A stretch of 64,000 nt of DNA from Candidatus Zixiibacteriota bacterium (GTDB lineage Bacteria; Zixibacteria; MSB-5A5; WJJR01; JAJRUJ01). The translations under genes were made by a program, and so were the position numbers. The stretch covers positions 6,361 through 70,360 of the forward strand of contig JAGVQM010000012.1 in the NCBI GenBank assembly GCA_020051695.1. Direction: 5' to 3'. The stretch's first letter is position 1, and every line of letters begins with the position of its first letter. The notes beneath the pieces were generated by a model that was given only the letters and a program-made list of their open reading frames with translations, was not told the origin of the DNA and did no database searches. Below, piece after piece: positions 2,321-46,185 of this stretch.

Positions 2321-4356
2321 TACCTGCCTGTTCCCTCGGCCCGATCGCCGACCATGGCTTCAATGCGCAGCAGCGCGCGCCAATCGACGTAGTCCGAATC
2401 GCGCACAGTCACCACTGAACCGTCACTGCTGAAAAACCGGATCTCTTCAGTAATGAACAGTGAGTCGCCCTCAAATATCCCCGACTGTTCGGCTGTTATG
2501 GAGAACACGTCGCGAGAAGTCACCGGACCGTTAGTCCGGCCGGCCGCATCGACCGATGCCGGAGCAATCTCCGTCGGCCCGAGAATAAGATCGGGGTTAT
2601 TCGGCAGGTTGGCGCGAGAATCGGCCAGCCGAACCTCAATGACCACGCCAAAGGGCAAATGGTTATCAAATTCGGCCGAGATCGACGCCGCGCCGAACCG
2701 CTCGGCGAAATCATCACTTTCACCGGGTAGCGCGACTCCCTCGATTTCACCGGAATACTCAACGTCGTCCAGATACAACGACAATGGCGCTGTCAGTCTG
2801 AATGACGGGAGGATGAAATCGTTAGATCGCGCCGTGCCGGAGGTGATCCCATCGCCATAGGTGACCGTACCCGCCGCCGTGATCAGCGCCGGGATCGGGG
2901 AAAGCAATGTTGCGGCGTTGGCAATGGTGGTCTGGCTGGCAAGGGGAACACCCGCGGCAGCCGGCACAAACTCGCCGGCGATCTGTAACGACTGCTGCCG
3001 GTCTCCGGTTAACAGCAAATCAAATTCCCCGGGGTAGGGGAGTGAACTGACGACTTCCACCTGCAATTCCCCGGCGGCCAGGCCGACGTCGGCGAATCCC
3101 TCAGGCAAATCAATCTCGGCCTGCAAATGCTCGACGGGCTGGACAGTCGCCGGCAAAGTTCCGGTCACCGATTCGATGACTGGTGCCGCGATGTCTACCG
3201 TGACAGCAATGCGGTCGGCCGAGGAAATCGCAATCGGGGCCACGGAGCCGGATGAAAACAGGACCGCATTAATGCGCAACGGGGTGAAACTCGTTACATC
3301 ATTACTGTAAGAGGTCCCGGTCAAGTCCAGGGGAAGTTGCACGGTCGAGTGTGCCGCAACGGTCCTGGTCATCGCTACCGGCACGCCGTCCCGTGTCAAA
3401 TCGGGCAAAATCAGATTTACAGAAAAAACAAGGTTGCTGCCGTTGCCCAAATGCACCAACACCTGTCCACCGGAAAACTCAGCAGCGGACGCCTGAATGT
3501 CGTCGGTAAACTCAATAGTATCAGCCAGTGTTTTTTCAAACTCCGGAACAACGGCGAGCGCCTCGGTAACAGCGATGGCTTCCGGGAAGTGGGCGGAAAT
3601 TTCGATGGTGTTGCCTGCCACCGACTCCACATAACCGCCGGGAGTACGGACATACACCGAAAACGCCAATTGCCCGCTGATTACCGCTCCGGAAAGATCC
3701 ACGTCCGCGGCGCGGCTTTCCGCAGGGCTGATGACACCGGCGAAGACAACCCGTCCGACTTCGGCCGCAGTCCCGGCATCGTCGATGACGACTTCGACAG
3801 AATCAAACGCCAGGGCACAATTATTGGCGGCAGTCACGCGCAGGACTCCCTGGGCGATATTCGCACTCTGGATGTCCTGGAATGGGGGAAAATCGCGATG
3901 GATCTGTGCCGCGAAACCGGGAATATCCCCGGCCGGTCCGCCGTAGAGTTCAACCAGCGAAATGCCGGCCGTCAGTTCCTGCGCGGGGTGCAGAGAAACC
4001 GCGCCCAGTGTGTCGGCATACGACTGACTGATGTTGGCAAAGGTGATATTGTCCCCGATGAAGATGGTATCCAGTGTGCGGCGCACCTCGAACCGGGCCC
4101 CGGAAACCGAATCCCAGATAAGTTCTTCCTGAGCAGCGTGGCTGATAATGTATGGGACATCATAATGGCGGTTGACCAGCGGCACGGTCAAATCGACAGT
4201 CCATCGCGGCGATTCCGGTGATTCAAGAGAACAACCGCTGATCGGTAATACCGGCATCAGGAGGGCCAGCGCCACGGCCAAGTTCCGGCGACTTCGCTGA
4301 GTCCGCCGGCCGGCCAAACGACTGCCACATGCCTGTCTGCTGGATCGATCACCCAT
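2320..4356 (-). CDS. large lipoprotein (about 678 aa), function unknown
   Basis: The long ORF 2320..4581 has an internal start at MGDRSS (4356). That start is followed by a signal peptide and lipobox (LALLMPVLPISGCS). Sequence upstream of it is AT-rich and noncoding-like. It is co-directional with and overlaps the downstream OMP gene. Confidence 0.6.
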   Translation of the reverse strand: MGDRSSRQACGSRLAGRRTQRSRRNLAVALALLMPVLPISGCSLESPESPRWTVDLTVPLVNRHYDVPYIISHAAQEELIWDSVSGARFEVRRTLDTIFIGDNITFANISQSYADTLGAVSLHPAQELTAGISLVELYGGPAGDIPGFAAQIHRDFPPFQDIQSANIAQGVLRVTAANNCALAFDSVEVVIDDAGTAAEVGRVVFAGVISPAESRAADVDLSGAVISGQLAFSVYVRTPGGYVESVAGNTIEISAHFPEAIAVTEALAVVPEFEKTLADTIEFTDDIQASAAEFSGGQVLVHLGNGSNLVFSVNLILPDLTRDGVPVAMTRTVAAHSTVQLPLDLTGTSYSNDVTSFTPLRINAVLFSSGSVAPIAISSADRIAVTVDIAAPVIESVTGTLPATVQPVEHLQAEIDLPEGFADVGLAAGELQVEVVSSLPYPGEFDLLLTGDRQQSLQIAGEFVPAAAGVPLASQTTIANAATLLSPIPALITAAGTVTYGDGITSGTARSNDFILPSFRLTAPLSLYLDDVEYSGEIEGVALPGESDDFAERFGAASISAEFDNHLPFGVVIEVRLADSRANLPNNPDLILGPTEIAPASVDAAGRTNGPVTSRDVFSITAEQSGIFEGDSLFITEEIRFFSSDGSVVTVRDSDYVDWRALLRIEAMVGDRAEGTGR

Positions 4357-4599
4357 AATTCCCCACCTTAAAAGCTGTCGCAAATGCAAGCGATGTTTCG
4401 CAGGATCATTTGGCAATTGCCATGCCGGGTGAACCGACTTGCCCAACAACCGAGCAGGAAATAAATATAACAACCAATACCACAACAGCTTGGATAAGGG
4501 CGACGGATTTCGATTCCGGATAAACCGACCATGAGTGCTGCGATAATCGAGGGGGAAATGTGGGTTGCATCCCACACTCAAACGGTAAGTACGCCAAAT

Positions 4600-21003: not shown

Positions 21004-23958
21004 TTAAAATGTGTCCAACTGCTCGACTTCCGTGAACACCGCCATCTTGCCGACATATTCACCGCCGTCCGGGGCGGTGACGATGTAGATATACAACCCC
21101 GAGGCCAGCGGCAGACCGTGCTTGGTCAGCATGTTCCAGACGTAGAACGACTGGTCCCCGGCGGTTTTTTCGAGAGTGACCACATGGTCGCCGGCAAGGT
21201 TGAACACTTTGATTGAGCACTCGTACGGCAGGTTCGTGAACTTGACCATCCGGGTAAACTGGTCGGGTTCATACAACGAGCTGTTGAAATACGGATTCGG
21301 CACGACTTTGATCTTGCTCATGTCGTAGGCCGCGTCCGCCGCCATGTCCTGCTCGGTGACCGCCGGTGTGCTGAAGGTGAAGATATCCTCTGGTTTGTTC
21401 ACCTTATAGGTCGTATACCGGATGACTGTGCCTTCCGCCGGGACGCCTCCATTAATCTGAATCCGCCCGATCTTGAAGTCGGCATCGAATTCGTACTCCA
21501 TGACCTCGGGATGAGGCTCCGCATAGGGGACTTCGGAAGGATACGTGCGGTCGCCGGGCGACCAGTCCCCGGATTCATCATCATCGAGGAAGGCGATTTG
21601 AATCCGCACATCGTCGGAAGGATCATCCGGGGTCGCTGAACCGATATTCCAGACTTCAAACGGACAGCGATTCGGCATCAAACCGTCGGTGTTCCAATCG
21701 TAATATTCACTGCCCGCAGCGGTGAAGCGGAATTCCCAGTCGTCGGTGCCGATATGACCACGCCAGTTGAGTCGTGCGATATTGGAGCCGTCATCCGACG
21801 AGGTGTAGAAATCGTGGGTTGAGTTCCACGAATAGAAGACATTGTCCGGAGGATCAACGACGGCTCCACCGGCCCCGGCGACTTCATAGACCGTATTCAC
21901 ACCCTCGTCCGGTCCGGCAACTTTCATCTGGAAACCATCGACGATCGGGTAATCATTATCGCCGGTCTGGTTGGTCATGTCTTCAAGGAGGTACGCTCCG
22001 GTCGTTTCATCAGACAAATTCCAGAACGTCCCGCCCTCACCGTCATCCTCGAAGGTGATCTTGTAATCGTGACCGGTCAGCAACCCAGGATCGATAACTG
22101 TCGGTCGGATGATACCATCCGAAGAACCTACGGGATGGGTGACTTCAATGACCTCAGCGTAATCCAGCGGATAGACATACCCACCGGCCGGTTTTTGCGG
22201 CGCAGCGGTGATGGCTTCCGGCGCATTTTCCAGCGTTTTGGGCGTTTTCTCCGGATCGTAGGAATACGCGGTCACTGCCCAATAGTAATCATACACATTG
22301 TGCAGTGGTCCGCCCTTCCAGGCGTCCTGGGTCAGCTCGATGAAGCGACGGATGCCGCTGTCTGAACCGAATTGCACCGGGTGGTCGACAACCGCGCCGT
22401 CACTGACGACAAATTCCAGGTCGAAGATGATCCCATTGCCGTCGTTGATATCGTACGTCGCGACCCGTTTCCACGGACCGGCAACCGACTTGCCCTGGTA
22501 GACGTTGTAGCCCTGGAACGCATAATCGCCATGATCGAGTTCGGACCGGTCATCCCAGTGCAGGATGATGCTGCCGTCTCCCGGCGTGGCGGTCGCCACC
22601 GGGCGGGCCGGCGGGTCGGGCAGAATGAATTGCGCGTCAAACGCCGACTGCGCAAACAAGTCGTTGAACTTCAATGCGGTAATCGAAGTCAGCCGGTCGG
22701 AGCCCTGGCCGACCAACCCCGCGACGACAACCTGCTGGGTATCGTTCGGCGCCATCGTGAACGGGCCAGTCGACTGCATATACCGCCGGTCGGCAGGGTT
22801 GGAATCCAACCAGCCGGTCCCGGTAGTCGGATCACCGGGAAACATATAGGTGGTTACTTCGCCGGTGACCGGGTCGGTAACCGGCGCGCCGGAGGCCTTG
22901 GCGTCCAGCCCCTGCATATACCAGTAGGTTTCCTGGGCGTTGTCCGGGTCGGTGCCGTTGATGTACTGGAAAAATGAGGTCATCGGCAGCGAGGTGTAGC
23001 CATAACGCCATTCATCCAGGAAGTAAACCGAATCGGTTTCTTCGCCGGCAGCGATCGGCCCCTGGAAGAAGTCATATCCTGTCGCCGGGGGAGTGCTGCC
23101 GTAATTGGCATCGTTGTTGGTGGCATTGTAGCAATACCCCAGACTCAGATCGACATCACTGCCAACGAGGTCGTCGCCAGCGTCGCCCAGATCGGGGTCG
23201 GCCCAGACCGAGGCATACATGTTCTCAATGGTCGCTTCGCTTTTATTGATGAAGCGGAAATCCATGAACAGGCACTGGCCCAGTGAACCCGTGCGGTTGA
23301 ACGCAAAAGTCGTCTGCTGGATTTCCACACCCAAACCTGTGGCGGAACCCGCAGAATTCACGTGCACTGCCGGATCAGCGTCGTTGTAGACACACCACAG
23401 GGTCTGGTCTCCGATGATTTTGGGCCGTCCCTGGTCATCCAGGGGGGCGCCCATGTCCGACGGCCAGTTGTGGTAGTCGTCCCACAGCTCGGCCTCGTCC
23501 ACGTCACTGGGCCGGGCAGCATCGTAAAAGCCCTGGTCGCGCAGGTTTTTGGAAATTTTGTAGACCTGGAATTCGTCACGGTCGGCCTGGAATGTGCCGT
23601 TCAGCATCGGCCCGGGCGAATACGTGTGGGAGTATTCTGCCAGACTGACGCGCAGGTCGCCACCGACCTTGCCGCCCAGCCACAAGCCGCCGGCGTAGAT
23701 AACCGAAAGGTTGGTCCCGCGCGGGAAATACAAGCCGTCGGCCTTGCCGAACAACGCGCCGTTGTCGTAGGCAAACGATCCCTGGTTGGTCACGAACATC
23801 AACAACTGGTTCGCGTCGATGTAAGTTTGGTAGTCAAGCCCTGCCTGAGCCGTCGATTTATACAGGCCGAATTCGGCCCGCATCGGCGGCGCTCCCTGCA
23901 CCGCCGCTGACCACAGCAGGACCAGCATACAACAGAGTAACAGGTTTACACGCTTCAT
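21004..23958 (-). CDS. large secreted protein with T9SS C-terminal sorting domain (cargo; PorU-like sortase is a possibility by synteny)
   Basis: Signal peptide (MKRVNLLLCCMLVLLWSAAVQG). The C-terminal ~80 aa match the Por_Secre_tail pattern (KVVPNPYF...VKFTNLP..CSIKVFNLAGDHVVTL.....W......G..ASGLYIYIV). It lies directly upstream of the PorV gene in the same orientation. Confidence 0.6.
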   Translation of the reverse strand: MKRVNLLLCCMLVLLWSAAVQGAPPMRAEFGLYKSTAQAGLDYQTYIDANQLLMFVTNQGSFAYDNGALFGKADGLYFPRGTNLSVIYAGGLWLGGKVGGDLRVSLAEYSHTYSPGPMLNGTFQADRDEFQVYKISKNLRDQGFYDAARPSDVDEAELWDDYHNWPSDMGAPLDDQGRPKIIGDQTLWCVYNDADPAVHVNSAGSATGLGVEIQQTTFAFNRTGSLGQCLFMDFRFINKSEATIENMYASVWADPDLGDAGDDLVGSDVDLSLGYCYNATNNDANYGSTPPATGYDFFQGPIAAGEETDSVYFLDEWRYGYTSLPMTSFFQYINGTDPDNAQETYWYMQGLDAKASGAPVTDPVTGEVTTYMFPGDPTTGTGWLDSNPADRRYMQSTGPFTMAPNDTQQVVVAGLVGQGSDRLTSITALKFNDLFAQSAFDAQFILPDPPARPVATATPGDGSIILHWDDRSELDHGDYAFQGYNVYQGKSVAGPWKRVATYDINDGNGIIFDLEFVVSDGAVVDHPVQFGSDSGIRRFIELTQDAWKGGPLHNVYDYYWAVTAYSYDPEKTPKTLENAPEAITAAPQKPAGGYVYPLDYAEVIEVTHPVGSSDGIIRPTVIDPGLLTGHDYKITFEDDGEGGTFWNLSDETTGAYLLEDMTNQTGDNDYPIVDGFQMKVAGPDEGVNTVYEVAGAGGAVVDPPDNVFYSWNSTHDFYTSSDDGSNIARLNWRGHIGTDDWEFRFTAAGSEYYDWNTDGLMPNRCPFEVWNIGSATPDDPSDDVRIQIAFLDDDESGDWSPGDRTYPSEVPYAEPHPEVMEYEFDADFKIGRIQINGGVPAEGTVIRYTTYKVNKPEDIFTFSTPAVTEQDMAADAAYDMSKIKVVPNPYFNSSLYEPDQFTRMVKFTNLPYECSIKVFNLAGDHVVTLEKTAGDQSFYVWNMLTKHGLPLASGLYIYIVTAPDGGEYVGKMAVFTEVEQLDTF

Positions 23959-23984
23959 GCGCTCTGCCTCCTTGGCCTGAAAAA

Positions 23985-26900
23985 TCAAAGACTCACTTTG
24001 ACCCCAAAGCGGATTTGACGCGGAACGTCATAGCTGTTGGGGTTATTCTGTTTGAGTTCATACTTTTCCAACCGGTCCATGCCCGACCAGTCGGCGCCGG
24101 GGTCGTTGGCCAGCCAGTCCTGCCCGGCGTCCGTGGCCAGCCAGCCGGTGTTGCCCACCTGGCCGGTCGATTCGTACACGTCGACCGCGTTTTCCCGGTC
24201 AAGGACATTGATCACCCAGAGGTAGAAATCCATGCTGTATCGTCCGAACGAGACGATCTTATTGGCCTTCAGGTCCAGGCGATAGGTCCACGGGCCGTAC
24301 TGCGAATTGATGCGGCCGGCGGGCACCGGCGAAATCGAAGCCAGCGTCACTTCGTTGAAGATTTCCATCGGGGAATACGGAGTCCCGGAGGCGGCGCCGA
24401 AGTGGAAATTGACCCCGGCGTTCTCCAGCGGATACCATTCACCCAGTTTCGGCCCCTCGCCCTGTCCTGCGCGGACATCCACGGTCGCCGAGAGTTTGTG
24501 GCGCTGGTCAAAATCGAGCGGTGAAGCCAGCTTCGGCGTTTCTGAGACGGTCCAGACAATATTGTTCTGGGTGTTCGGCCAGGAACCTGTTCCATTGGCC
24601 CAGGAGAGACTGTAACTGACATCCAGGGCCACGCTATGGTTCCGCCGCATATTGACGGTAAATTCAAGCCCCTTCACCGTCCCGAAATCGGCGTTACCGT
24701 AGATATCATAATCACGGCCGGCCGCACCCGGAGACACCGAGTAATGCTCCAATTGAGTGAGATCGTCGATGTCCTTATAGTAGGCCGTAACATCCAACCG
24801 GGTATAATCGCCGACCTGTTTGGTCATCCCGATTTCGTAGGCGGTCGTTTTCTCCGGCGCCAGATTGGGATTGCCGAACGGGTAGTAATAGCCGGCTGAC
24901 GTCAGACGGTATTCCATATAGTCCCAGCCGACAAACAGGTTCTGCAGGTCGGGGCGCTGGAAAAATTTACCGTACGACAGGTGGAACGTGGTCTTATCAG
25001 AAACCGGGAAACCGAAACCAAGCCGGGGAGATACTTTCATTTCCGCCTTGGCATCCTCCAGGTCGGTCGGGTCGAGCACGTTGTCGTCGCCGATACCGTC
25101 ATCCGGATCGCCGAGCGGCATCCGCACCGATTTCAGGCGCTTGGTATTGGTGTTCAGGTAATCGAACCGCAACCCGCCGTTGACCACCAGGCCTTCCCAT
25201 TCGAACTTATCCTGGAGATACATCGCGAAATTCATCGGCGTCCGGGCTTCGTTCCCTTCGGACAGGGTGTCGGATTCGTTGCCGAAAATGTCGTACCCAT
25301 AATGGTCGACATCTTTGAGTCCGCCATTGTCGTACCACGTACCGTCCACCACCGAGTCTTTGAAGATCGTATTCGGAAACAAATGACGGTAGTAGCGCAG
25401 GGTGTGCCGTTGGAGATCGATACCGGCTTTGATCTCGTGGTGGGCATGGACCTGGCTGGTAATGTCGGCCTTGAAACCGTAATAGGAAGATTTGCGCTTG
25501 GTGTAATCTTCCCAGACCCAGCCCTCATCGGCAGCCATCACGCCGTCTTCATCGAGCGCGATATAGTCGCTGACCCAGGGATCGGTATCGTTGGCAAACG
25601 CCGTATGGACGCTGTCGCGCCACCGGCCGTTGCGCACAAAACCGCGTTCATCGCGGACAACGTACTCGGTCGTATCGATCAGCACACCGTCGTCATCGAA
25701 ATTCTCGACCAGGATATATCCATAACCGTAGGTCTCATCGAAGAATATTTCGTGGTCGCGGCCCGAGGGTGTGTTGGGGTTGTCCCCGCTATAATACAAT
25801 TGAGTATCGTCGAAAGTGAAGTTGGCGTCCGGACGACCATAACCCCACAAGTCATCGAAGAGGGTGCCGTCGCCGCGCTCACGTTCAGTCACGTAGTAGT
25901 TGAGCGCAGCGGTATAGAACATCTTGGGATTGACGTTGTGCACCAGCTTGGTGTAGATGGAGTTGTTATAGTCGACATACCGCGGCACGTGCGGGGTGTT
26001 GAAATAAAACGCGTGCTGGTATTCACTCCAGTCATCGAACGACCCGAGCGAGCCCGCCTTGAGCTTCATCGAATTGGTCAGGTCCCAGTTCACTTTGCCC
26101 TGCCAGGAGTAGCCGGACAACCGGTTGGAGGGCAGTTCATAGGACTTGTCGCCGTTGGCATCGGTGAACCACTTCTCGGTCGTGGCCCGTGGCCCACGGT
26201 CACCCTGATAGCGCCGCTCACCGGAAATGAAGAATGTCATCTTGTCTCCGGCGCCGGGCACGGGTCCCGACAAATCACCGGCGTACAAGTTGTAATCATA
26301 GTTCTGCGACGTGATATTGTCGGTGACAACATCGATCGAACCGGTGTAATCAGGTCCGCCGTCCTTGGTCGAAACATTGATCGTCCCGGAAGAAACCCAG
26401 CCGTATTCCGCGGGGAATCCGCCGGTGGTGATCGAGACTTCCTCGACGGCGTTCTGGTTGATCTGCGTCGTCGACAGTCCGCTCAGCGGGTCCTGCTGTG
26501 AGAAGCCGTCGACAAAATACGCCACTTCGGAACGGCGGCCGCCGCGGACGCTCATGGTGGACGGGCCGGCCGTGCTTTCACGCCCGCCCCGCGCCCGGAC
26601 TTCAGCGTTGTCCAAGAACTGGACGACACCGGCCTGATAGCCCACAATATCCTGATAGGAGCGGGTGGGCAGCGAGGAGATTTGCTCACGGTCGACAATA
26701 CGCAGGGACGAGGTCTGGTCCGGGATGACAATCGGCCGTTCGGCTTGCACACGGATCGTCCCCACCTCGACTGCCTGAGAAGCCAGCTGCATATCGACTG
26801 TGGTCGTCAAATCGACGGATACGCGGACGTTGGCCGTTTCCACCGGGCCGTACCCGACCAATTGTGCTTTCACCACATAGCTCCCGACCGGCACGGACAG

Positions 26901-27113
26901 GATAAAATACCGCCCGTCCTGGTCGGTTAAGGCGCCGAGCACGGTGCCCATGGCGGTGACCGCCGCGCCGGGAATCGGCGCGCCCGTATCCCGGTCGGTC
27001 ACTATCCCCGTGATTTTTCCTGTCGTCCCGGCCATAGCCAGCGACGCGGTCAGGAGCAGACACAGCGCGACGACGGCCAAGACAAATTTCCCATTGATGT
27101 TTGAGTTCAACAC
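23985..27113 (-). CDS. TonB-dependent receptor with N-terminal carboxypeptidase-regulatory-like domain
   Basis: GTG start at 27113 with AGGAGG 5 nt upstream. There is a signal peptide, a CarboxypepD_reg-like segment (ITGIVTDRDTGAPIPGAAV...DGRYFILSVPVGSYVVK), plug-region motifs, and a long beta-barrel ending in an aromatic-rich terminus. Its stop overlaps the start of the next gene. Confidence 0.8.
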   Translation of the reverse strand: MLNSNINGKFVLAVVALCLLLTASLAMAGTTGKITGIVTDRDTGAPIPGAAVTAMGTVLGALTDQDGRYFILSVPVGSYVVKAQLVGYGPVETANVRVSVDLTTTVDMQLASQAVEVGTIRVQAERPIVIPDQTSSLRIVDREQISSLPTRSYQDIVGYQAGVVQFLDNAEVRARGGRESTAGPSTMSVRGGRRSEVAYFVDGFSQQDPLSGLSTTQINQNAVEEVSITTGGFPAEYGWVSSGTINVSTKDGGPDYTGSIDVVTDNITSQNYDYNLYAGDLSGPVPGAGDKMTFFISGERRYQGDRGPRATTEKWFTDANGDKSYELPSNRLSGYSWQGKVNWDLTNSMKLKAGSLGSFDDWSEYQHAFYFNTPHVPRYVDYNNSIYTKLVHNVNPKMFYTAALNYYVTERERGDGTLFDDLWGYGRPDANFTFDDTQLYYSGDNPNTPSGRDHEIFFDETYGYGYILVENFDDDGVLIDTTEYVVRDERGFVRNGRWRDSVHTAFANDTDPWVSDYIALDEDGVMAADEGWVWEDYTKRKSSYYGFKADITSQVHAHHEIKAGIDLQRHTLRYYRHLFPNTIFKDSVVDGTWYDNGGLKDVDHYGYDIFGNESDTLSEGNEARTPMNFAMYLQDKFEWEGLVVNGGLRFDYLNTNTKRLKSVRMPLGDPDDGIGDDNVLDPTDLEDAKAEMKVSPRLGFGFPVSDKTTFHLSYGKFFQRPDLQNLFVGWDYMEYRLTSAGYYYPFGNPNLAPEKTTAYEIGMTKQVGDYTRLDVTAYYKDIDDLTQLEHYSVSPGAAGRDYDIYGNADFGTVKGLEFTVNMRRNHSVALDVSYSLSWANGTGSWPNTQNNIVWTVSETPKLASPLDFDQRHKLSATVDVRAGQGEGPKLGEWYPLENAGVNFHFGAASGTPYSPMEIFNEVTLASISPVPAGRINSQYGPWTYRLDLKANKIVSFGRYSMDFYLWVINVLDRENAVDVYESTGQVGNTGWLATDAGQDWLANDPGADWSGMDRLEKYELKQNNPNSYDVPRQIRFGVKVSL

Positions 27114-27471
27114 ACATCCCTCCTGTTGGGAGATTTCCTTGCTGTTCCCGGCGTTTGAGCTGCACGCCGGCATTGTTCACAACTGTGGAACACTATGACG
27201 GTTCCCCCATCTCGCCTCCTTGCTCGTTCACGTTAACTACCATGTCATTCCATCCATAGCTGACAGGCATCGGCGAGCCCATTCTCCGCCGATTTCCGGG
27301 TATGGGCGCCCACCCATACCGCGACCCATTACTTCCTATCGGACAATCCCACTGTCCCTGAATAGATTAACAAAAATATTTTCCGCCGGGACTGCGGCCT
27401 GCAACGACATCTCCCCCCAATTGCAGTCTTTCCCCTCGGCAGGAAATTCCGTCGCTTGTCACGCGATGTCA

Positions 27472-37008: not shown

Positions 37009-37335
37009 ATGCAATACGATCATGTGCTGGTCCTGACTACCTGCGCCTCGGAGGACCAGGCGGCCCAAATTGCCGAGGCACTGGTTACAACCAACGCCGC
37101 CGCCTGCTGTAATATTATTAAGGATGTGCGCTCGCTGTTTATCTGGCAGGGGAAACTGGAAGATGACCGGGAAGTATTACTGTTGACAAAAACAACGACC
37201 GCGTCATTCCCCAAAGTCCGCGACACAATATTGAAACTGCACTCCTACGACGTCGCGGAGATCATCGCCGTACCGATCGTTGACGGTTCGGATGATTACC
37301 TGAGGTGGGTCAAAGAACAAACATCGAAAAAGTAG
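37009..37335 (+). CDS. cutA: divalent-cation tolerance protein CutA
   Basis: 108 aa with a full-length CutA1 fold pattern (YDHVLVLTTCASEDQAAQIAEALV...CCNIIKDVRSLFIWQGK...SYDVAEIIAVPIVDGSDDYLRWV). GGAGG RBS. Confidence 0.85.
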   Translation: MQYDHVLVLTTCASEDQAAQIAEALVTTNAAACCNIIKDVRSLFIWQGKLEDDREVLLLTKTTTASFPKVRDTILKLHSYDVAEIIAVPIVDGSDDYLRWVKEQTSKK

Positions 37336-37410
37336 GTCGGGTTCCGGAGTCACCCGCCTCGGCGGGGGACGGAGAAACCCGACAAGGGTTGACAACGATC
37401 ACAAAAATGA

Positions 37411-37437
37411 AAAGGTGGGTGCGAAGCACCCACCCCT
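37411..37437. terminator. bidirectional terminator between convergent cutA and the dockerin-like secreted protein gene
   Basis: Hairpin GGTGGGTGC-gaa-GCACCCACC, with an A-run on one side and a T-rich stretch on the other. A second hairpin (GTCGGGTT...AACCCGAC) lies at 37341-37388. Confidence 0.6.
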
Positions 37438-37457
37438 GCGGTACAGCGTATTCGGCA

Positions 37458-38261
37458 TCAATCGATACATCCCTCGCACAGCGCATCCTGCCCCTTATAG
37501 ATGTATTGGACCAGAAATTGCACATCGAGGGGATTGAACGAGCCATCGCAGTTGACATCACCTTTAAGATATGGGCATAACGGCCGATCGGGGAGGTATT
37601 GTAATACTGCTCTGATCATCCCCCAGACAGCCCAGCTCACATCCACCGGATTGGCCACGCCGTCATGATTGATGTCTCCCTTGACGAAGCAATCACACGC
37701 ACAAACTTCTATGATGCCCTTGGTGAAAACGGCCTCACCGGTGCCGAGCGGCCCATGGTCCACCGGCGGGAATTCATCATCGATCATCATGATCGCGCCG
37801 GCGCCGCTGGGGAACGCTGCGGTATCAAACACGAATCGCCCAACGGACATGGCGATATCAAAATCCAACCGGAGCCGTTGATACGCGAAGGAAACGGCGT
37901 TCAAGGGTTGCATGATGATCTGAAAATACTCGGGGGAAGAACCGTCGTACACTGTGCATAATTCCTTTTGCGTAGCTTCTCCCGTATTGTAGATCCATGT
38001 CACGCCGTTTTCGGTTCCCTGGCAGTAAACCGGCTTATCCCCGGCCCAAAATGCACCGCCCAATTCGCTGCGCACGACAATTGGAATCGTCAAAGCGGAC
38101 AACTCGGTTGTATTGGCAACCTTAACCCACACCGACACGTCCTGCTTACCGTAAAATACACTATCACTGGTGAATTCAACTCCCCACCAGGCAAAGGCAC
38201 TGGTGGAGCTTAACAAGAACACGAAAACAGTACCCACCATACGTAATTTCATCTCCCTCAT
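37458..38261 (-). CDS. secreted protein with C-terminal Cys-rich dockerin-like module
   Basis: The RBS GGAGGAGGAGG precedes the ATG at 38261 (MREMKLRMVGTVFVFLLSSTSAFA signal peptide). The C-terminal ~80 aa are CACDCFVKGDINHDGVANPVDVSWAVWGMIRAV...CPYLKGDVNCDGSFNPLDVQFLVQYIYKGQDALCEGCID. This is the same module as the C-terminus of the FG-GAP protein. Confidence 0.6.
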   Translation of the reverse strand: MREMKLRMVGTVFVFLLSSTSAFAWWGVEFTSDSVFYGKQDVSVWVKVANTTELSALTIPIVVRSELGGAFWAGDKPVYCQGTENGVTWIYNTGEATQKELCTVYDGSSPEYFQIIMQPLNAVSFAYQRLRLDFDIAMSVGRFVFDTAAFPSGAGAIMMIDDEFPPVDHGPLGTGEAVFTKGIIEVCACDCFVKGDINHDGVANPVDVSWAVWGMIRAVLQYLPDRPLCPYLKGDVNCDGSFNPLDVQFLVQYIYKGQDALCEGCID

Positions 38262-38570
38262 ACTCCTAACCTCCTCCTCCCAAAAACATATCGGCGTTAC
38301 GCGTTTCCGTTGTCCGCCTGAAAACTCAATCGACTCACCATCATACGCTGCAAGGGCCGTCACACCCTTATCATCACCACGAATGCGGAGATCACCCACG
38401 CATTCGGACTATTGACTAACGCAATCTTTGCTAATAAGATACCATGCGCCGGGGCGGTGTCAAGTCGCAAACACGAAGAAAAAACGGATAATCAACCGTC
38501 GATTACGAATATCGCAGTAATTTACTATGATTATTAATACTCGATCCAATCATCATTTATGCCCCGATGC

Positions 38571-39401
38571 TTATGGGCACGAAATAATCACCGTCGCCTC
38601 GGCGATCAGACTGTCGACTTCCCCGCCTAAATCTTGAATATTCCCGTCATCCCACAAGCGGACAGTATATCCACCGGGCGCCAGACCGGCAACCTGTGCG
38701 GAGACATTGAAATAACACATGCAGCGCAGCCAGGCCGATGACGTATCAGTTTCGGTAAACGTCAGAATGGTACCGTCCTGCTCGAAAGCAAAGGCAAGCA
38801 CCGCACCACAGTTGGCGAACAGGGCATCGTGATAGACCGTGAGCGTATCGCAGTTCGTTTCAAACCGGATATGCCCGCCCCCCGGGACCGTGAGTTCTGC
38901 CTCGCCCAGCAGAAACTCGCGGTTTGCGGTCCACAGCCGGGCGGTGTACGTCCCCGGTCCAATATTTGCCGCTGAGGTCTGCACATTGAAATAGCACAGG
39001 CAATCGCACTCCAACCCGGTATCAGCCTCGATGAAATCCAAAAATTCGCCGTCCTGCCACAATGAGAAGTCGAACAGCGCGCAACATTGGTAAAACGCCG
39101 AATCGTGATATACATATACCGTATCCTGGCCTACAGCAAACCGCACCGTCCCGCCGGGGCCGGCGGTTACGCCCGTTGTTTTCGGCAAGCCACCCAAACA
39201 CCCGCTGCTTTGGACATCGACGATGTAAGGATTCTGTGGGGAGTGGGCCGGACGATAAGTAATTTCGCTGCCGTCGAGACAGCCGCTTTGCCGGGAGGTC
39301 AGGACAGGTTGTCCCGGGCTTGACGTTGAATCGCCACAACTCAACACCAGGGCCGGACAGAGGACTACACACGCGATGTGGAATATATTTTTCACGGTCA
39401 T
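38571..39401 (-). CDS. lipoprotein with two internal ~110-aa tandem repeats
   Basis: Lipobox LVLSCGDS. Two homologous halves are VYHDSAFYQCCALFDFSLWQDGEFLDFIEADTGLECDCLCYFNVQTSAANIGPGTYTARLW and VYHDALFANCGAVLAFAFEQDGTILTFTETDTSSAWLRCMCYFNVSAQVAGLAPGGYTVRLW. Confidence 0.55.
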   Translation of the reverse strand: MTVKNIFHIACVVLCPALVLSCGDSTSSPGQPVLTSRQSGCLDGSEITYRPAHSPQNPYIVDVQSSGCLGGLPKTTGVTAGPGGTVRFAVGQDTVYVYHDSAFYQCCALFDFSLWQDGEFLDFIEADTGLECDCLCYFNVQTSAANIGPGTYTARLWTANREFLLGEAELTVPGGGHIRFETNCDTLTVYHDALFANCGAVLAFAFEQDGTILTFTETDTSSAWLRCMCYFNVSAQVAGLAPGGYTVRLWDDGNIQDLGGEVDSLIAEATVIISCP

Positions 39402-39596
39402 CACCCACCCCCGAATACTGCTCACGTTTTAATTCCTGAGTATTATACAACGCAGACCATCGGCTATTCCATAAGCAAGAGAATCTCTCGGGTGCTGTCG
39501 ATAAAAAACCGGGCAGAGTCGCGGCGCATGTTCCAGCAACGCAATGAAATGACGAACATCGGGGGCGGGGTTGCCCCCCGCCCCACAATCTGCCGA

Positions 39597-40199
39597 CTAC
39601 GACGCCATATCCGGTTTCCAGACCTCCCAGACCTTGCCGACCAGGTCCGGCCCGGGTTTGAGCGTCAACTTACCCGGCTGCCAGCCGGCTGGTGTCGCCT
39701 CACCGGTCTTGCGGACATGCTGGAACGCTTTGATCTGGCGGAGCAATTCGGCGACATTGCGTCCCACCGGCGGGGTCATTACTTCCATCGCCTGCACGAT
39801 ACCATCGGGGTCGATCAAAAACCGGCCACGGATATCGACACCACCCGCTTCGTCGTAAATGCCGTACACCCGGCCAATTTTGCCCCCCGCGTCCGATAAC
39901 ATCGGGAACGGGAACCCGCCTTTGACCATTTTGGAGAGCTCCTCGGCCTGCCAGATCTTGTGGGTAAAGTGAGAATCAGTGCTTGCGGCGAATACTTGTA
40001 CGTCCAGGGCCTTGAATTCATCCTGCTTGGCGGCAACTGCCGACAATTCCGTCGGTCAAACGAAGGTAAAATCACCGGGATAAAAACAAAGGACTATCCA
40101 TTTACCCTTGTAATCAGAGAGTTTGAATGTTCGAAATTTCCCCTCGTAAAAGGCATTCGCTGCAAAATCAGGGGCCGGTTCACCTACTCGAGCGGTCAT
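39597..40199 (-). CDS. peroxiredoxin (AhpC/TSA family) with an in-frame TGA at the peroxidatic-Cys position; candidate selenocysteine PrxU-like 1-Cys peroxiredoxin
   Basis: AAGGAGG lies 8 nt upstream of the ATG at 40199 ([47 protein letters not shown]). A TGA at 40058..40056 is followed in frame by [14 protein letters not shown]...[11 protein letters not shown]..., so the universal FTFVCPTE motif reads FTFV-TGA-PTE. The resolving Cys is absent (GEATPAGW instead of GEVCPAxW). The ORF track splits it into 40056..40400 and 39597..40046, which are in the same frame. Confidence 0.6.
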
Positions 40200-40443
40200 T
40201 TTCGGCGCCTCCTTTCGCAAAACTTTCGTTTCCTGATCGTCGGTGGTTTCTTCCGCCGGGTCGATTGGCCCAGCGGCCGGTTCAACGCATGATTTTCCTG
40301 GCTCGGTCATAAAATACCTCCTGTACTCTAATCCCATAAGATGATATGGGAATTTAGGAGATAATTCAAGAGAAAAAGGCGTGGGTGGGAAAACCGGCAC
40401 AGCTTGTCGACCATCCTGAGGGCAGGTTCGTTGAATTGTCCGC

Positions 40444-42306
40444 TTATTCAGCGATTAAATCAGTGCGTTGTGCATCCAATTTGAATTGCAAATCATGTAA
40501 TTTCCTGTACAACCCACCGCTGTGCAGGAGTTCCCCGTGCGAACCGCGCTGGACAATCCGGCCGTTATCGATCACCACGATCTCATCAGCGCGGCGGATC
40601 GTCGATAACCGGTGCGCCACCACCAGGGTCGTCCGGTTGTGCACCAGGTTGTTGATCGCTTTTTGCACTGTTGCTTCGGACTCGGTGTCCAGCGCGCTGG
40701 TGGCTTCATCAAAAATCAGGATTTCAGGGTCCTTCATAATCGCTCGGGCAATCGCCAGCCGCTGCCGCTGCCCGCCGGAAAGCTGCACGCCCCGCGGGCC
40801 GATGACCGTGTCGAAACCATCGGACATCTTTTCCACAAATTCCAGCGCATAGGCCGCCCGGGCCGCGGCTATCAGTTTTTCGCAGCTGCAATCGCGCATG
40901 CCGTACGCAATATTGTGGGTCACCGTATCGTTGAACAGGATTGTCTCCTGGGTCACGATCCCCAGCAGGCGCCGCCAGGAGTCGATCTGGAATTCCTGCA
41001 GGTCCACACCATCGACCAGCACCCGCCCGCTCAGGGGATCGTAAAACCGGGCCAGGATATCGCACAGGGTCGATTTGCCTCCGCCGGAGGGCCCAACCAG
41101 GGCGATCATCTTCCCCCGGGGCAGTTCGAGGTCGATCCCCTGCAATACGGGATATCCCTCACGATAGGCAAAGGAAACATGCTCGAAGACGATGCAGTCA
41201 GCGAACCGGGCAATCGGCCGCGCGCCCGGGCGGTCGGCAATGTCCGGTTTGGTATCGAGGATGCGGAAGATGCGCTCGATCGCGGCGGCTCCCTCCTGGA
41301 TTTTGACGTGCAATCCGGCCAGCGCCTTGACTGGTGTGAGCATGGAAAACATCAGGAAAAAATACGTCATGAACTCATCGGCGGTCAGCGACTCGCCGCC
41401 AAGCACCTGCCGCCCGCCGACATAAAGGATGGCCACACCGGCGGCCGTCCCCAGAAATTCATTGATCGGGGAGTTGAGGATGCGCATGCGCGTCATTTTC
41501 AACATCTCACGGAAAAATGCCTCGGTCCCCCGGCGAAAGCGCGCGACTTCGAAGTCTTTCATCGCAAAGGCCTTGACCACACGGATGCCGGAGATACTTT
41601 CCTCCAGCACCGTGGCCACTTCCGCCATTTTTTCCTGTGACCGTCCGGAATAGTGCCGGATCGCCCGGCCGACCAGCAACAACACCAGCCACGTCGCCGG
41701 CAGGACCAGCAGCGCCAACAAGGTAAGCTGCCAGCTGATCACAAACAGTGAGAAAAACAGAATCAATATGGTCAGCGGATCTTTGACCAGCCGCGTAAAA
41801 CCCAAGTCGAGCATATCGGTCAGCAGACTGACATCGTTGGTCACCCTGCTGATAATTTTTCCCGTATTTGTCCTGCTGAAATACGACAACGATAAGTCAT
41901 GATAGTGGGAAAATAAATCGTTCCGCAGTTGGAAGATCACTTTCTGCTGGACCAGGGCAACGATATAATTGTGGATGTAGAGAAAAATGTTCTTGATCAG
42001 GGACAGCACAATGATCACCCAGCATAATTGGACCAGTGTGGAGTATTGGTCCTCGCGGTGCACCAGCGCGTCAAGCCGGGATTTAACAAACTCCTTGATC
42101 TCCTCCAGGCCCCCGCCGGTTGCCCCCTGGTCGGCCGAGGTGACCGCATCCCAGGAAGCGCCGTTGGCGCCGAACAGGGTATTGACCAGCGGCCCGATCA
42201 TCCAGACCAGAACGGCCGAGAGCAGCACAAAAATCACCGTCGCCGTCACTGAAACAGCCAGCAGGGCCGCGTAGGGCCGGATGTATCGCAAAAATCTAAT
42301 CAGCAT
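40444..42306 (-). CDS. ABC exporter, fused permease-ATPase (MsbA/lipid-A-exporter-like)
   Basis: Six TM helices followed by an NBD with Walker [10 protein letters not shown], the signature [14 protein letters not shown] and Walker [13 protein letters not shown]. Confidence 0.85.
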
Positions 42307-42328
42307 AATTCCACTTTCCGATAGGCGT

Positions 42329-43456
42329 TCACCTGCGCCGCGGGTCCGCGACGACCGGTTCGGTGGCCGTGCGGTCAACGGCCGTTTCCTCGATCATCCC
42401 GCGCAGGGTATCGACAATCTCAGTCAGCTCCACGGGCTGCGCGGCCTCGTCAAAGGCCCGGTCCAGCGGCCCCAAAGGACGGTATTTGGCGAGATTGGAT
42501 ACGACAAAGATGCCGACGGTCGGCACGCCGCAAGCCGCCGCCAGGTGCATGATACCGTTGTCGTTGGACACATAAGCCGCCGCCACTTGAAAAAGTGAAA
42601 CTAAATCCTCAAATCGCAATTTGCCCGCCACCACGGCCGTCTGCGGCAGGTCCGCGCGGGTGGCCTGCATCATCTCATCCTCGGCAGGTCCCCAGATAAA
42701 AACCGGCCGGGCACCCAATTCTGTCCCAATCCGCCCTGCCAATTCCACAAACCGGCCAAGCGGCCAACGCTTGGGACCACGCCCGCCGGGGTGGATGACA
42801 ACCAGGGGAACATTGGCCGGAATGTTGTGCGAATGCCGGAAATGTGCGCCATAGGAATTGACCCGGGAGACATTCAACGCCGGCCGTGGCGCATCGGAGA
42901 CTTCCGCCAGCGCCCGCAGCAAATCGAGGTGCATCTGCGTGGCATGACGCCCGGGATCACCCGGATTGATGGCCGTCTCCAGCCATCGCGCCGACCCACG
43001 CCGGTTGTAGCCGATACGAAACCGTCCCCCGGAAAACGCGGTGACAATGGCATGGTTGAACGATAGCTCGAGTTCATCCGAGGCATCGAACACCAGTTCG
43101 AATTTTTCTTTTTGCAGCGAACGTACAATACCCCACAATTTGAGCGGATTTCGCGCGTAGGCCTTCTTATCATAGGGAATGCACCTGTCGACTGCGGGCA
43201 GGAAAGCCGCTAACTCCCGGAACCGCTTGGACAACAAACACGAAATCTTCATTCCGGGGAATGCCGTTTTCAGGGAAATTAGCAGCGGCGTCAGCAGAAT
43301 CGTGTTGCCGATTCGGTCATCAAGCCGCACGATGAGGACCTTGCGGATATTCCGTAAATCCGCGGCGGTGGGCGGCCGTCCGGGGCCGGGAGCAAAATAT
43401 GTAATCAGCCGAAAACCCAGGCGCTTGAGTCCGTGCTCGAATCCCTTGAGTCCCAT
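42329..43456 (-). CDS. glycosyltransferase family 9 (LPS heptosyltransferase-like)
   Basis: GT9 pattern: KVLIVRLDDRIGNTILLTPLL, VVIHPGGRGPKRWPLGRFVELA, VSNDNGIMHLAAACGVPTVGIF. Start at MGLKGFE. Confidence 0.7.
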   Translation of the reverse strand: MGLKGFEHGLKRLGFRLITYFAPGPGRPPTAADLRNIRKVLIVRLDDRIGNTILLTPLLISLKTAFPGMKISCLLSKRFRELAAFLPAVDRCIPYDKKAYARNPLKLWGIVRSLQKEKFELVFDASDELELSFNHAIVTAFSGGRFRIGYNRRGSARWLETAINPGDPGRHATQMHLDLLRALAEVSDAPRPALNVSRVNSYGAHFRHSHNIPANVPLVVIHPGGRGPKRWPLGRFVELAGRIGTELGARPVFIWGPAEDEMMQATRADLPQTAVVAGKLRFEDLVSLFQVAAAYVSNDNGIMHLAAACGVPTVGIFVVSNLAKYRPLGPLDRAFDEAAQPVELTEIVDTLRGMIEETAVDRTATEPVVADPRRR

Positions 43457-43487
43457 GCGCGGAATGTAACACCGCCGGCCGGATGGG

Positions 43488-44240
43488 TCAATCGGCCAAA
43501 CCGACCAGGCGGCGCAGGCGGGCGGTCTCGGGCTTGCCCAGTTTGCGGAAGGTACCGGGGGCCAGCCGGCCGACATGAAAACCGGCGAAAGAACGCCGGG
43601 ATAGTTGAATTACCGGCGCACCGGCCCAACCCAACAGCCGTTTGACTTCGTGTTTGCGACCTTCGCGGATGTGGACTTCAACAATAATATTCCGCCCACG
43701 CGGTTTGACTACCCGGATTGTCCCGCAGGCAGGGGTCTTGTCCCCCAGATCAACACCGGATTTCGCCTGTCGCACCTTGTCCGCCTGGGGTGCACTCCGG
43801 ACAGCGGCAAGGTAGACGCGCTCGATGCCATACCGGGGATGCTGCAAACGGCGCGATAATTCTCCGTCATTGGTCAAAAGCAGGGCGCCGTCAGTATCAA
43901 AATCCAGCCGGCCGACCGGCTGGACAACCTGTAATTCCGGCGGTAACAGGGAAAATATTGTCGGTTTGCCGCCCTGCCCCCGGCGCGAAACCAGATATCC
44001 CGCCGGTTTATGGAACAAGAACACCTGGTAGGCAGGCGGCGCGAGTCTGCGGCCGTCGACTTTCACAATGTCGGATTGCGGATTAACCGAGGTACCGACG
44101 GTGGTGACCGTATTCCCGTTGACTTCCACTCGTCCCGTGCGGATCAGGTCATCCGCCTTACGCCGTGAGGCCGTTCCGGTCCATGCCAGGTACCGGTTCA
44201 AACGCATCGACTCGTCCATCACCTGCACCACATACCCCAT
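43488..44240 (-). CDS. pseudouridine synthase, RsuA/RluB family
   Basis: S4-like N-terminus (RLNRYLAWTGTASRRKADDLI). The catalytic block VGRLDFDTDGALLLTNDGE carries the conserved Asp. Confidence 0.8.
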   Translation of the reverse strand: MGYVVQVMDESMRLNRYLAWTGTASRRKADDLIRTGRVEVNGNTVTTVGTSVNPQSDIVKVDGRRLAPPAYQVFLFHKPAGYLVSRRGQGGKPTIFSLLPPELQVVQPVGRLDFDTDGALLLTNDGELSRRLQHPRYGIERVYLAAVRSAPQADKVRQAKSGVDLGDKTPACGTIRVVKPRGRNIIVEVHIREGRKHEVKRLLGWAGAPVIQLSRRSFAGFHVGRLAPGTFRKLGKPETARLRRLVGLAD

Positions 44241-44306
44241 GCCATGTATAACCGCAAAAGACCAACTGGGGAAGATCAGGAAACCGGCAGCAATCCTCCG
44301 GCCGGC

Positions 44307-45389
44307 TTATTCGACCGGTGAGGTTACCACCTCTTCGGCAGTGCGGAGCAATCGTTCGTGTTCATGTTCGGCCTGGTCGTCGGGCAGCGGGACGTCCATG
44401 TCACTTTCGCTGGTTTCGCGGTCCTCGGAGCCGATTGTTTCCGCCGTTTCCCATTCATCCGCGGCGGACGCTGGAGTATCCCCCTCCGCGGCGGCTGTTC
44501 TTTTGAGGATCAGCCGCTGGGCCGGTGATGCACTCGTTTGTTCAGCAGGTTCGGGCTTAACCTGTTGATCGGCCTCGGCCGAAACCGGCCGGTGATCATC
44601 CTCGGGCGGCACAACTGCTTCCGACATTGGGGTATGATCGTCATCGCCTGCCGTCTCGCTCGCGGCCTGCGGTTCTTCGGCGGTTTCCCGATCGGCCACC
44701 CCTGCGGTCGGGACGGGTTCCGGTTCGCAGACCGTAGCAGATGTTTCATCTGTCGAACTGACGGCGCCGGACTCTTCTGTCTCTTCCGCCGAAGCAAAAT
44801 GCGCCGCCATTCCGGTGGTCAGTTTGATCGGGACCTGCTCTCCCGCCTCGTGCTGTTTCAGCAATTTTTCGAGTTCCTCGATTCGCGGCAACTCCCGTAG
44901 ATGGTTCAAACCGAAATAATAGAGGAATTCTTTGGTTGTGCCGTACATCAGCGGCCGGCCCGGCTTGTCCGAGCGCCCGACAATGGCCACAATTTTCCGT
45001 TCGAGCAGAGTGCGCAGAACCCCCCCCGAATCGACACCGCGGATTTTTTCGATTTCCGGGCCGCTGACCGGCTGCCGATAGGCAATAACCGCCAAAGTCT
45101 CCAGCGCCGGGCTGGACAGCCGTTGTTTTTTCGTTTTGGCCAGCAGACTTTCGATATATTCGGCGTATTCCGGCATCGTACACATCTGGTACCCGCCGGC
45201 AATTTCACGGACCCGGAATGAAGCGCCGGCCTCAACATACCTCTGGTTCAGGGCCGCAAGCGCCCGTTCGATCTCTTCGTTTTTGGTATCTGCCAGAACC
45301 CGGCTGATTGCGCGGAGCGGCAGCGGCTCGGCGGCTGCAAAAAGCAACGCCTCAACAATATTGGTCAATTGCCCGTTATTCATGGTCAT
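44307..45389 (-). CDS. scpB: segregation and condensation protein B with long acidic C-terminal extension
   Basis: ScpB winged-helix core (IVEALLFAAAEPLPL...GGYQMCT...SPALETLAVIAYRQPVSGPEIEKIRGVDSGGVLRTLLERKIV), followed by ~200 aa of low-complexity acidic tail. Confidence 0.8.
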   Translation of the reverse strand: MTMNNGQLTNIVEALLFAAAEPLPLRAISRVLADTKNEEIERALAALNQRYVEAGASFRVREIAGGYQMCTMPEYAEYIESLLAKTKKQRLSSPALETLAVIAYRQPVSGPEIEKIRGVDSGGVLRTLLERKIVAIVGRSDKPGRPLMYGTTKEFLYYFGLNHLRELPRIEELEKLLKQHEAGEQVPIKLTTGMAAHFASAEETEESGAVSSTDETSATVCEPEPVPTAGVADRETAEEPQAASETAGDDDHTPMSEAVVPPEDDHRPVSAEADQQVKPEPAEQTSASPAQRLILKRTAAAEGDTPASAADEWETAETIGSEDRETSESDMDVPLPDDQAEHEHERLLRTAEEVVTSPVE

Positions 45390-45399
45390 CCCCAAAGGA

Positions 45400-46185
45400 T
45401 TACGCGGCCACCGGATACAGCCAGATATCTGTGAACGGTCCGTTCTGGCGGAGGCCGATTTTCCCCGTGCGCAATAATTCCAACAGGGCAATAAAAGTCA
45501 TCACCAGAATGTTGCGCGTCGGATTGTCATCAAGCAAATCGGCAAAACGGATACCCGTGGAATGTTGCAGGACCGCTTCGACGTACGCTATCCGCTGTTC
45601 GACGGTGACCCGGTCGACGGCGACTTCACAGTAAATTTCCTCCTCGACGCGGTCCAGGACATCCTTGAACGCGCTGAGCAGGTCATACAGCGAGTAATTG
45701 TTCACGAATTCGTCTTTGGTCAGGGAGACCGGATCGACGAGGTCCGAGCGCCCGTAGACGCCACGGTTTTGCGCTTCCCGCTCCCGCAATTCCAGCGAGA
45801 CTTCCTTGTATTTCCGATACTCCAGCAGGGCGCGCACCAGTTCGTCGCGCGGGTCTTCCTCGTCCTCGGCCAACGGGTCCCGGGGCAGGAGCATGCTCGA
45901 CTTGATTCGAATCAATGTCGCGGCGACGACGAGATATTCACCGGCGATTTCCAGATCGAGGGTCTCCATTAAACGCAGGTACTCCAGGTATTGGCCGGTG
46001 ATCCGGGCGATGGGGATGTCGTAAATATCGATTTCGTCTTTTTTGATCAAATAGAGCAACAAATCCAGCGGCCCCTCAAAGACATCGAGTTTAATTGAAT
46101 GCAGACCACCGCCATGGCCGTTCCCGTTTCCATTCCCGTTGCCGTTGCCGCCGGGTTGCAGCGGATGTCCCTGCTCGCTTGTCAT
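45400..46185 (-). CDS. scpA: segregation and condensation protein A
   Basis: ScpA core (LDVFEGPLDLLLYLIKKDEIDIYDIPIARITGQYLEYL...). An N-terminal (GN)6 tract is encoded by a GTTGCC/GTTCCC-type hexanucleotide repeat at about 46110-46150. Confidence 0.85.
   Translation of the reverse strand: MTSEQGHPLQPGGNGNGNGNGNGHGGGLHSIKLDVFEGPLDLLLYLIKKDEIDIYDIPIARITGQYLEYLRLMETLDLEIAGEYLVVAATLIRIKSSMLLPRDPLAEDEEDPRDELVRALLEYRKYKEVSLELREREAQNRGVYGRSDLVDPVSLTKDEFVNNYSLYDLLSAFKDVLDRVEEEIYCEVAVDRVTVEQRIAYVEAVLQHSTGIRFADLLDDNPTRNILVMTFIALLELLRTGKIGLRQNGPFTDIWLYPVAA

Follow-up and report, generated by a model that had tools for sequence, protein, structure and literature searches.

The PrxU peroxiredoxin (Prx) purified in the original PrxU paper is reportedly a protein of 203 amino acids with selenocysteine (Sec) at U47. 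The Sec insertion sequence (SECIS) of E. coli fdhF is a minimal 17-nt hairpin with a GGUC loop, in which G23 and U24 are essential, and a bulged U17. Peroxiredoxins with the TxxU motif are counted among the experimentally verified bacterial selenoprotein families in two reviews (PMC13188914, citing Sohling et al. 2001, and PMC9312934). Here we describe a minus-strand locus in a 64,000-nucleotide stretch of contig JAGVQM010000012.1 from Candidatus Zixiibacteriota (the whole stretch is called the window below, and coordinates refer to it unless a related locus is named). In our judgement it is almost certainly one intact prxU gene, encoding a thioredoxin-dependent peroxiredoxin of the Prx1/AhpC class in which the peroxidatic residue is selenocysteine. 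The gene looks broken because ordinary gene finders halt at its in-frame TGA; it is an ordinary member of the already known, curated PrxU family.

At this locus the list of open reading frames (ORFs) has two same-frame minus-strand entries, 40056..40400 and 39597..40046. An earlier note on this DNA (hereafter the original prediction) had taken the two together as a complete AhpC/TSA-family peroxiredoxin that the ORF track had split wrongly, and the translation of 39597..40199 agrees: the frame opened by the ATG at 40199 encodes a peroxiredoxin of 200 codons that is interrupted once, by a TGA at 40058..40056 (minus strand), and shows no further frame disruptions. The same frame runs upstream to a second ATG at 40310, which has its own AGGAGG; the 37 residues gained in this way are conserved in the family. 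The features of this gene model are as follows.

39597..40310, minus strand: prxU, long form, 237 codons including Sec85, with the TAG stop at 39599..39597 (NF040737; tblastn to the prxU of Peptoclostridium acidaminophilum)
39597..40199, minus strand: prxU, short form, 200 codons with Sec48, the gene model of the original prediction
40056..40058, minus strand: UGA predicted to be read as selenocysteine, the peroxidatic residue, in the motif PGDFTFVU (alignment to Prx structures, Cys forms and relatives)
40086..40088, minus strand: Cys75 (LCFYPGD), near-invariant in PrxU relatives, Phe in other Prx1 enzymes
39693..39695, minus strand: Thr206, at the canonical position of the C-terminal resolving Cys (alignment)

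With Cys put at the TGA, the product matches the Pfam families AhpC-TSA (3e-38) and 1-cysPrx_C (1.4e-10), and its best matches among solved structures are typical 2-Cys Prx1/AhpC enzymes (AcePrx-1, 4fh8, 4e-52; human Prx2 and Prx1). The TGA aligns on the Cys of DFTFVCPTE in the solved 2-Cys peroxiredoxins, likewise on the Cys of Cys-form homologues, and on the TGA of the type prxU gene, so that the sole interruption does fall, as had been claimed, exactly on the peroxidatic residue. Typical 2-Cys peroxiredoxins have a resolving Cys in a C-terminal GEVCP motif and form an intersubunit disulfide. Alignment to 4fh8 and human Prx2 places Thr (GEATPAGW, codon 39695..39693) where GEVCPAGW bears this Cys, and its absence had been correctly read from the DNA. 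The related copies in which the motif was found mostly have T here (53 copies); 7 have M, 2 have C and 1 has L. The window protein contains no Cys besides Cys8 and Cys75 and, as judged from these alignments, is of the Prx1/AhpC fold class but not of the 2-Cys mechanism.

The family assignment was made with the NCBIfam equivalog model NF040737 (peroxi_PrxU), against which the long form scores 391.6 bits (cut-off 270), model positions 2-233 of 233 being covered by residues 6-235. The runner-up family, AhpC (TIGR03137), reaches 194 bits, under its cut-off of 272. A tblastn search against plasmids identified the type gene, prxU of Peptoclostridium (Eubacterium) acidaminophilum DSM 3953, with 59.3% identity over residues 8-231 and a TGA at the same codon. 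This gene lies on an 809-kb megaplasmid and is annotated in RefSeq across the in-frame TGA as a 240-aa thioredoxin-dependent peroxiredoxin (WP_084481301.1). The likeness to PrxU that the original prediction had drawn is therefore upheld both by the family model and by the type gene.

The protein search returned three kinds of relatives, namely full-length Cys forms, 149-aa fragments laid out like the downstream ORF of the window, and many full-length forms with tryptophan (W) at the catalytic position. The 149-aa fragments led to two orthologous loci, in each of which the upstream AhpC-TSA fragment had been called as a separate gene. The locus L001/L002/L003 shows 93% amino-acid identity, is syntenic with the window and carries TGA at the same codon; its gene order (ScpA, ScpB, pseudouridine synthase, GT9, ABC transporter, prx, CutA1) is that of window genes 37009..46185. 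L004, with 88% amino-acid identity, has TGA at the same codon in a different gene context. A scan of one genome per GTDB species added 80 further loci from many phyla. These are the loci most similar to the Sec-form query and hence the Sec-rich part of the family, and with this restriction FYPGDFTFV is followed by TGA in 86 of 87 related copies, the exception having TGC. The TGA-bearing relatives come from Chloroflexota, Desulfobacterota, Zixibacteria, Ignavibacteria, Acidobacteriota, Thauera, Desulfothermobacter and others.

Between the window gene and its two orthologues, the ratio of non-synonymous to synonymous substitution rates (dN/dS) lies between 0.03 and 0.07 both before and after the TGA, with dS near saturation (at least 0.8); by this measure strong purifying selection acts on the gene upstream and downstream of the codon alike. 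Among the three close orthologues, the 11 codons that follow the TGA have a dS of 0.125-0.46, compared with 0.8-1.5 elsewhere. The original prediction had taken a reading frame conserved past the TGA to favour Sec over a pseudogene. A nonsense mutation at the catalytic Cys codon would require one base change (TGC or TGT to TGA), and a pseudogene would also agree with the splitting of the gene by gene callers and with the lack of visible Sec machinery in the window. Against it stand the TGA shared with the 93% and 88% orthologues and with nearly all related copies, the low dN/dS on both sides at near-saturated dS, the covarying hairpin 3' of the TGA described below, and the absence of any other frame disruption. 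We consider a pseudogene very improbable, and effectively refuted by conservation.

The single TGC (Cys) copy among the 87 is that at 3246 in L030, a metagenome-assembled genome (MAG) of Acidobacteriota. It retains 7 of the 8 pairs of the hairpin described below and looks like a recent Sec-to-Cys replacement.

Translation might instead terminate at the UGA and re-initiate at the TTG at 40046, giving two polypeptides, and this TTG does begin the 149-aa ORF that gene callers report. Neither fragment, however, would hold the catalytic residue, no Shine-Dalgarno (SD) sequence stands ahead of the TTG, and the split falls precisely at the active-site codon in every relative. The characterised PrxU, as far as it is described in PMC13188914 (citing Sohling et al. 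2001), consists of one chain that contains Sec. We regard re-initiation as scarcely credible, and return to the reading of the UGA as Sec, for which the sequence 3' of the codon is informative.

The original prediction had pointed to a hairpin directly 3' of the UGA. This hairpin exists, and a SECIS-like structure is indeed present 3' of the TGA, but the structure supported by covariation is the next, overlapping hairpin downstream.

40028..40045, minus strand: predicted SECIS hairpin UUGUCGGC-A-GU-U-GCCGCCAA, with apical G22 U23 at 40037..40036 (covariation)
40040..40055, minus strand: hairpin of the original prediction, CCGAC-GGAAUU-GUCGG, positions 4-8/15-19, about -7.5 kcal/mol, overlapping the 5' arm of the SECIS

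Positions are counted from the U of UGA as position 1. The following counts refer to 82 distinct sequences, whose 42 nt from the UGA onward can be aligned gap-free. In the window the downstream hairpin comprises the pairs U14-A31, G15-C30, C17-G28, G18-C27, G19-C26, C20-G25 and A21-U24, with a mismatch at U16/C29. Over the whole set, 90.7% of the cells of the helix 14-21/24-31 are paired, and compensatory changes occur in 6 of the 8 pairs (69 cells). The observed values for percentage paired, compensated cells, pair types and covariation were not reached by any of 500 column shuffles. All slid registers were lower on compensatory changes and on covariation (0.08-0.125 versus 0.326); register -3 alone keeps high pairing (88.2%), with one compensatory pair. 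Compensated stems are exemplified by UUGAGCGCG-GU-CGCGCUCAA in L023, UUUCGGCG-GU-CGCCGAAA in L034 and ACAGCA-GU-UGCUGU in L007, and the type prxU (L088) has UUUCAGCA-GU-UGCUGAAA, the same hairpin as the window SECIS.

Both G22 and U23 are invariant (82/82), and the predicted minimum free energy (MFE) structure of every sequence has the GU in its hairpin loop. The flanking wobble positions belong to Ala (GCA/GCG) and Val (GUU/GUC) codons, and pair 21-24 is AU in 51 sequences, GC in 29 and GU in one, with one non-standard A/G and never A/C. On this comparative evidence the conserved hairpin at 40045..40028 is the predicted SECIS.

The hairpin CCGAC-GGAAUU-GUCGG was rejected as a conserved element. 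Its cells are paired in 68.3% of cases, which is no better than in shuffles, it shows zero compensatory changes, and its pair 7-16 forms in just 24 of the sequences. Often unpaired in relatives and without covariation, it is not the SECIS and is probably incidental. Folding of the single sequence prefers this hairpin; the comparative analysis alone separated the two.

Several observations weigh against Sec insertion at this codon. At -7.1 to -7.8 kcal/mol, with a family mean of -10.3, the window hairpin belongs to the weaker members; it carries the U16/C29 mismatch, and the competing hairpin upstream, taken alone, is slightly more stable. When the 60 nt that follow the UGA are simply folded to their MFE, the stability does not exceed that of shuffles (z = 0.56). 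A permissive scan of 39900..40150 (E <= 10) gave no match of the hairpin to Rfam 15, SECIS models included, and the scan of the whole window at Rfam gathering thresholds likewise gave no SECIS-type or other relevant family. Three Cys-form relatives that were examined retain 4, 6 and 7 of the 8 pairs, and the pairing is therefore partly imposed by the conserved Ala-Val-Ala codons. Finally, no selA, selB or selD was found in the 64 kb of the window by Pfam searches of 40 ORFs, and no tRNA-Sec, a tRNA-Lys being the sole tRNA there.

In a relative, the Anaerolineaceae MAG L025 (JACKCG010000008.1), a tRNA-Sec with anticodon TCA lies at 2858..2953, about 50 nt upstream of prxU; it was called by ARAGORN and matches Rfam RF01852 with 67.3 bits. 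A scan of the window for further TGA-split ORF pairs gave nothing convincing as a selenoprotein gene besides prxU.

Of 41 window ORFs, 16 end ordinarily in TGA, some with Pfam matches over their full length, which speaks for site-specific recoding and excludes code reassignment. A reassigned code (table 4 or 25), with TGA read as Trp or Gly, might be thought of since many database homologues are stored with W at the site: P0001-P0007, P0012, P0014, P0021, P0083 and P0110 have W at the catalytic position, and P0008 has Arg. The DNA of one W form was examined (P0002, the same as L087) and its codon is TGA, so that the W is a gene-calling artefact; gene callers presumably switch to the Mycoplasma-type code 4 on short contigs. 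Furthermore, Trp or Gly as the peroxidatic residue would abolish catalysis, and no in-frame TGA at a conserved Trp or Gly was seen among the candidate split ORFs of the window. Reassignment is thus even less believable than the explanations above, and an error of sequencing or assembly that hides a true TGC or TGT is equally far-fetched, since beyond the generic risk for metagenome contigs nothing specific speaks for it and TGA stands at the same codon in independent assemblies of other samples (ENA, NCBI, Logan, JGI). Taken together, the conserved TGA, the low dN/dS and the use of TGA as an ordinary stop lead us to reject a pseudogene, a sequencing error and codes 4/25 in favour of a Sec codon.

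The second question raised by the locus concerns its two starts, for which the following features are relevant.

40317..40322, minus strand: Shine-Dalgarno AGGAGG of the long start, read from the sequence; most relatives have a GGAGG-type SD before the long start
40208..40214, minus strand: in-frame internal Shine-Dalgarno AAGGAGG, 8 nt ahead of the ATG at 40199, read from the sequence
40263..40310, minus strand: conserved 16-residue N-terminal peptide with Cys8 (TGC at 40289..40287), recognised by motif conservation and lying within the NCBIfam model
40200..40262, minus strand: variable acidic linker of about 20 aa, following the N-terminal peptide

The original prediction had placed the start at ATG 40199 behind its strong AAGGAGG. 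The ribosome-binding site is present at 40214..40208 and is conserved, but this is probably one of two starts, the other being at 40310. In 66 of 74 long-form genes the 24 nt leading up to the Prx-domain start contain a GGAGG or AGGAG 5-mer, compared with 35% or less (mean about 6%) for any other 24-nt window. Some relatives have the short form only. In the type gene the internal start gives a protein of 203 aa with U47, and the RefSeq annotation is of the long form. Two isoforms are plausible because both starts are conserved, some relatives are short-only and the short form of the type gene has 203 aa and U47; for the window gene, the two SD/ATG pairs would yield forms of 237 and 200 aa.

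Sec forms and Cys forms alike keep the N-terminal motif C-V-x-P-A-x-G-P-I across phyla, and the linker lacks such conservation. The N-terminal Cys peptide occurs in about 70 of 85 Sec-form copies. The second copies in L072 and L074, the sole copies keeping the canonical C-terminal Cys, are without it. In an AlphaFold2 model of the Cys-form homologue P0041, the Prx domain has a mean pLDDT of 89.7, residues 11-20 about 76 and the linker about 50; nothing in the PDB aligns to residues 1-38. Perhaps the long isoform resolves its oxidised Sec with the Cys8 arm, through a selenenylsulfide, and the short isoform is a 1-Sec enzyme reduced directly by thioredoxin; we put this division of labour forward tentatively and think it rather unlikely.

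Two Sec-peroxiredoxin paralogues about 1-2.5 kb apart were seen in L072 (2163 and 3165), L074 (165 and 1164) and L031 (700 and 3249). Of each pair in L072 and L074, one member combines a hydrophobic N-terminal segment with the GEVCPAGW resolving Cys, and the other is without both Cys75 and the N-terminal Cys peptide.

For the window protein, Sec insertion and peroxidase activity are predictions from sequence, and we envisage the following course. The ribosome meets the UGA at 40058..40056, and the eight-pair hairpin begins 10 nt further on and presents its invariant apical G22-U23. Acting as a SECIS, the hairpin would recruit SelB-GTP-Sec-tRNA(Sec), as in the established bacterial Sec pathway, and Sec would be inserted in place of termination. 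By analogy with peroxiredoxin chemistry, the Sec selenolate (at U85, or at U48 of the short form), in its PxxxTxxU pocket, would reduce H2O2 or organic hydroperoxides and be converted to the selenenic acid. As Thr replaces the C-terminal resolving Cys, the oxidised Sec would then need either thioredoxin directly, in a 1-Cys-type cycle, or Cys8 on the flexible arm of the long form.

Two further features flank the gene.

39562..39584, minus strand: GC-rich perfect 9-bp hairpin GGGGCGGGG-GGCAA-CCCCGCCCC, 13 nt past the stop and without a U-run, read from the sequence
40341..40369, minus strand: promoter-like TTGAAT-17-TATCAT upstream of the long start, weak evidence, with 1 site found and 1.0 expected by chance

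The consensus scan did not call the hairpin at 39562..39584 a terminator, and it is not a canonical intrinsic terminator. Directly downstream of prxU lie two minus-strand ORFs without a Pfam match, 37458..38399, which ends in dockerin-like repeats (GDINHDGVANPVDV..., GDVNCDGSFNPLDVQFLVQYIY), and 38571..39425, which is Cys-rich and has an internal duplication. The syntenic locus L001 has an ORF of similar size (277 aa) at the same position, likewise without a Pfam match. Other large ORFs of the window without a Pfam match are 21004..23988 (minus strand, 994 aa), which is directly downstream and on the same strand of a gene resembling TonB-dependent receptors (23985..27173), and 2320..4581 (minus strand, 753 aa). 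A Fur-family regulator gene, possibly PerR-like, is found about 2 kb from the type prxU (L088, 5919..6404); none occurs near the window gene.

These results bear upon annotation. ORF-based and metagenome gene callers split prxU or rescue it with W at the active site, a systematic annotation artefact, and many PrxU sequences in public protein collections are therefore wrong. The covariation-supported PrxU SECIS model (UGA, 10 nt, 8-bp stem, apical GU) could be used for annotating such genes. Possession of this gene also makes the host a probable user of selenium whose peroxide defence is Sec-based, a trait already known in many anaerobes.

The window protein resembles typical 2-Cys peroxiredoxins (human Prx1 and Prx2, AcePrx-1 4fh8 and bacterial AhpC) over the whole Prx domain, with E-values of 4e-52 to 1e-41. 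It shares with them the active-site motif PxDFTFVCPTE, the Arg and the C-terminal GE..P.GW segment. It differs in having, as predicted, Sec for the peroxidatic Cys, Thr for the resolving Cys and an extra 37-residue N-terminal arm with a conserved Cys.

Like the fdhF SECIS, the PrxU element is a hairpin within the coding sequence that starts about 10-11 nt past the UGA and exposes an apical GU (here G22 U23). Where fdhF has the loop GGUC, the four apical bases of the PrxU hairpins are GGUC in 29 of the 82 sequences and AGUU in 51. The window hairpin also has an unpaired U (U16) six nt 5' of the G, comparable to U17 of fdhF. In contrast to fdhF, the spacing is one nucleotide shorter and the unpaired U is not conserved, position 16 being paired in 62 of the 82. 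By analogy, the PrxU element appears to be the fdhF design shifted by one nucleotide and is a predicted SelB site.

The closest described system is PrxU of P. acidaminophilum (Sohling et al. 2001, Biol Chem 382:979). The residues after Sec are PTEL in the window and ATEV in the type protein, and the N-terminal motif is CVEPAAGPI in the former and CARPKSQVE in the latter. The window host is an uncultured bacterium, represented by a contig of 55-59% GC without a glycine-reductase context, whereas the type gene is on a megaplasmid of a member of the Clostridia. The long/short arrangement and the N-terminal Cys arm may be the only part of our observations that is new, and the type gene, too, has an N-terminal Cys peptide and an internal AAGGAGG-ATG start. 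Both proteins do without a C-terminal resolving Cys (GAEVAPSGW type, and GEATPAGW in the window) and have the Cys in LCFYP; they share the fold of the Prx1/AhpC class, a UGA at the peroxidatic position and the apical GU at +22/+23.

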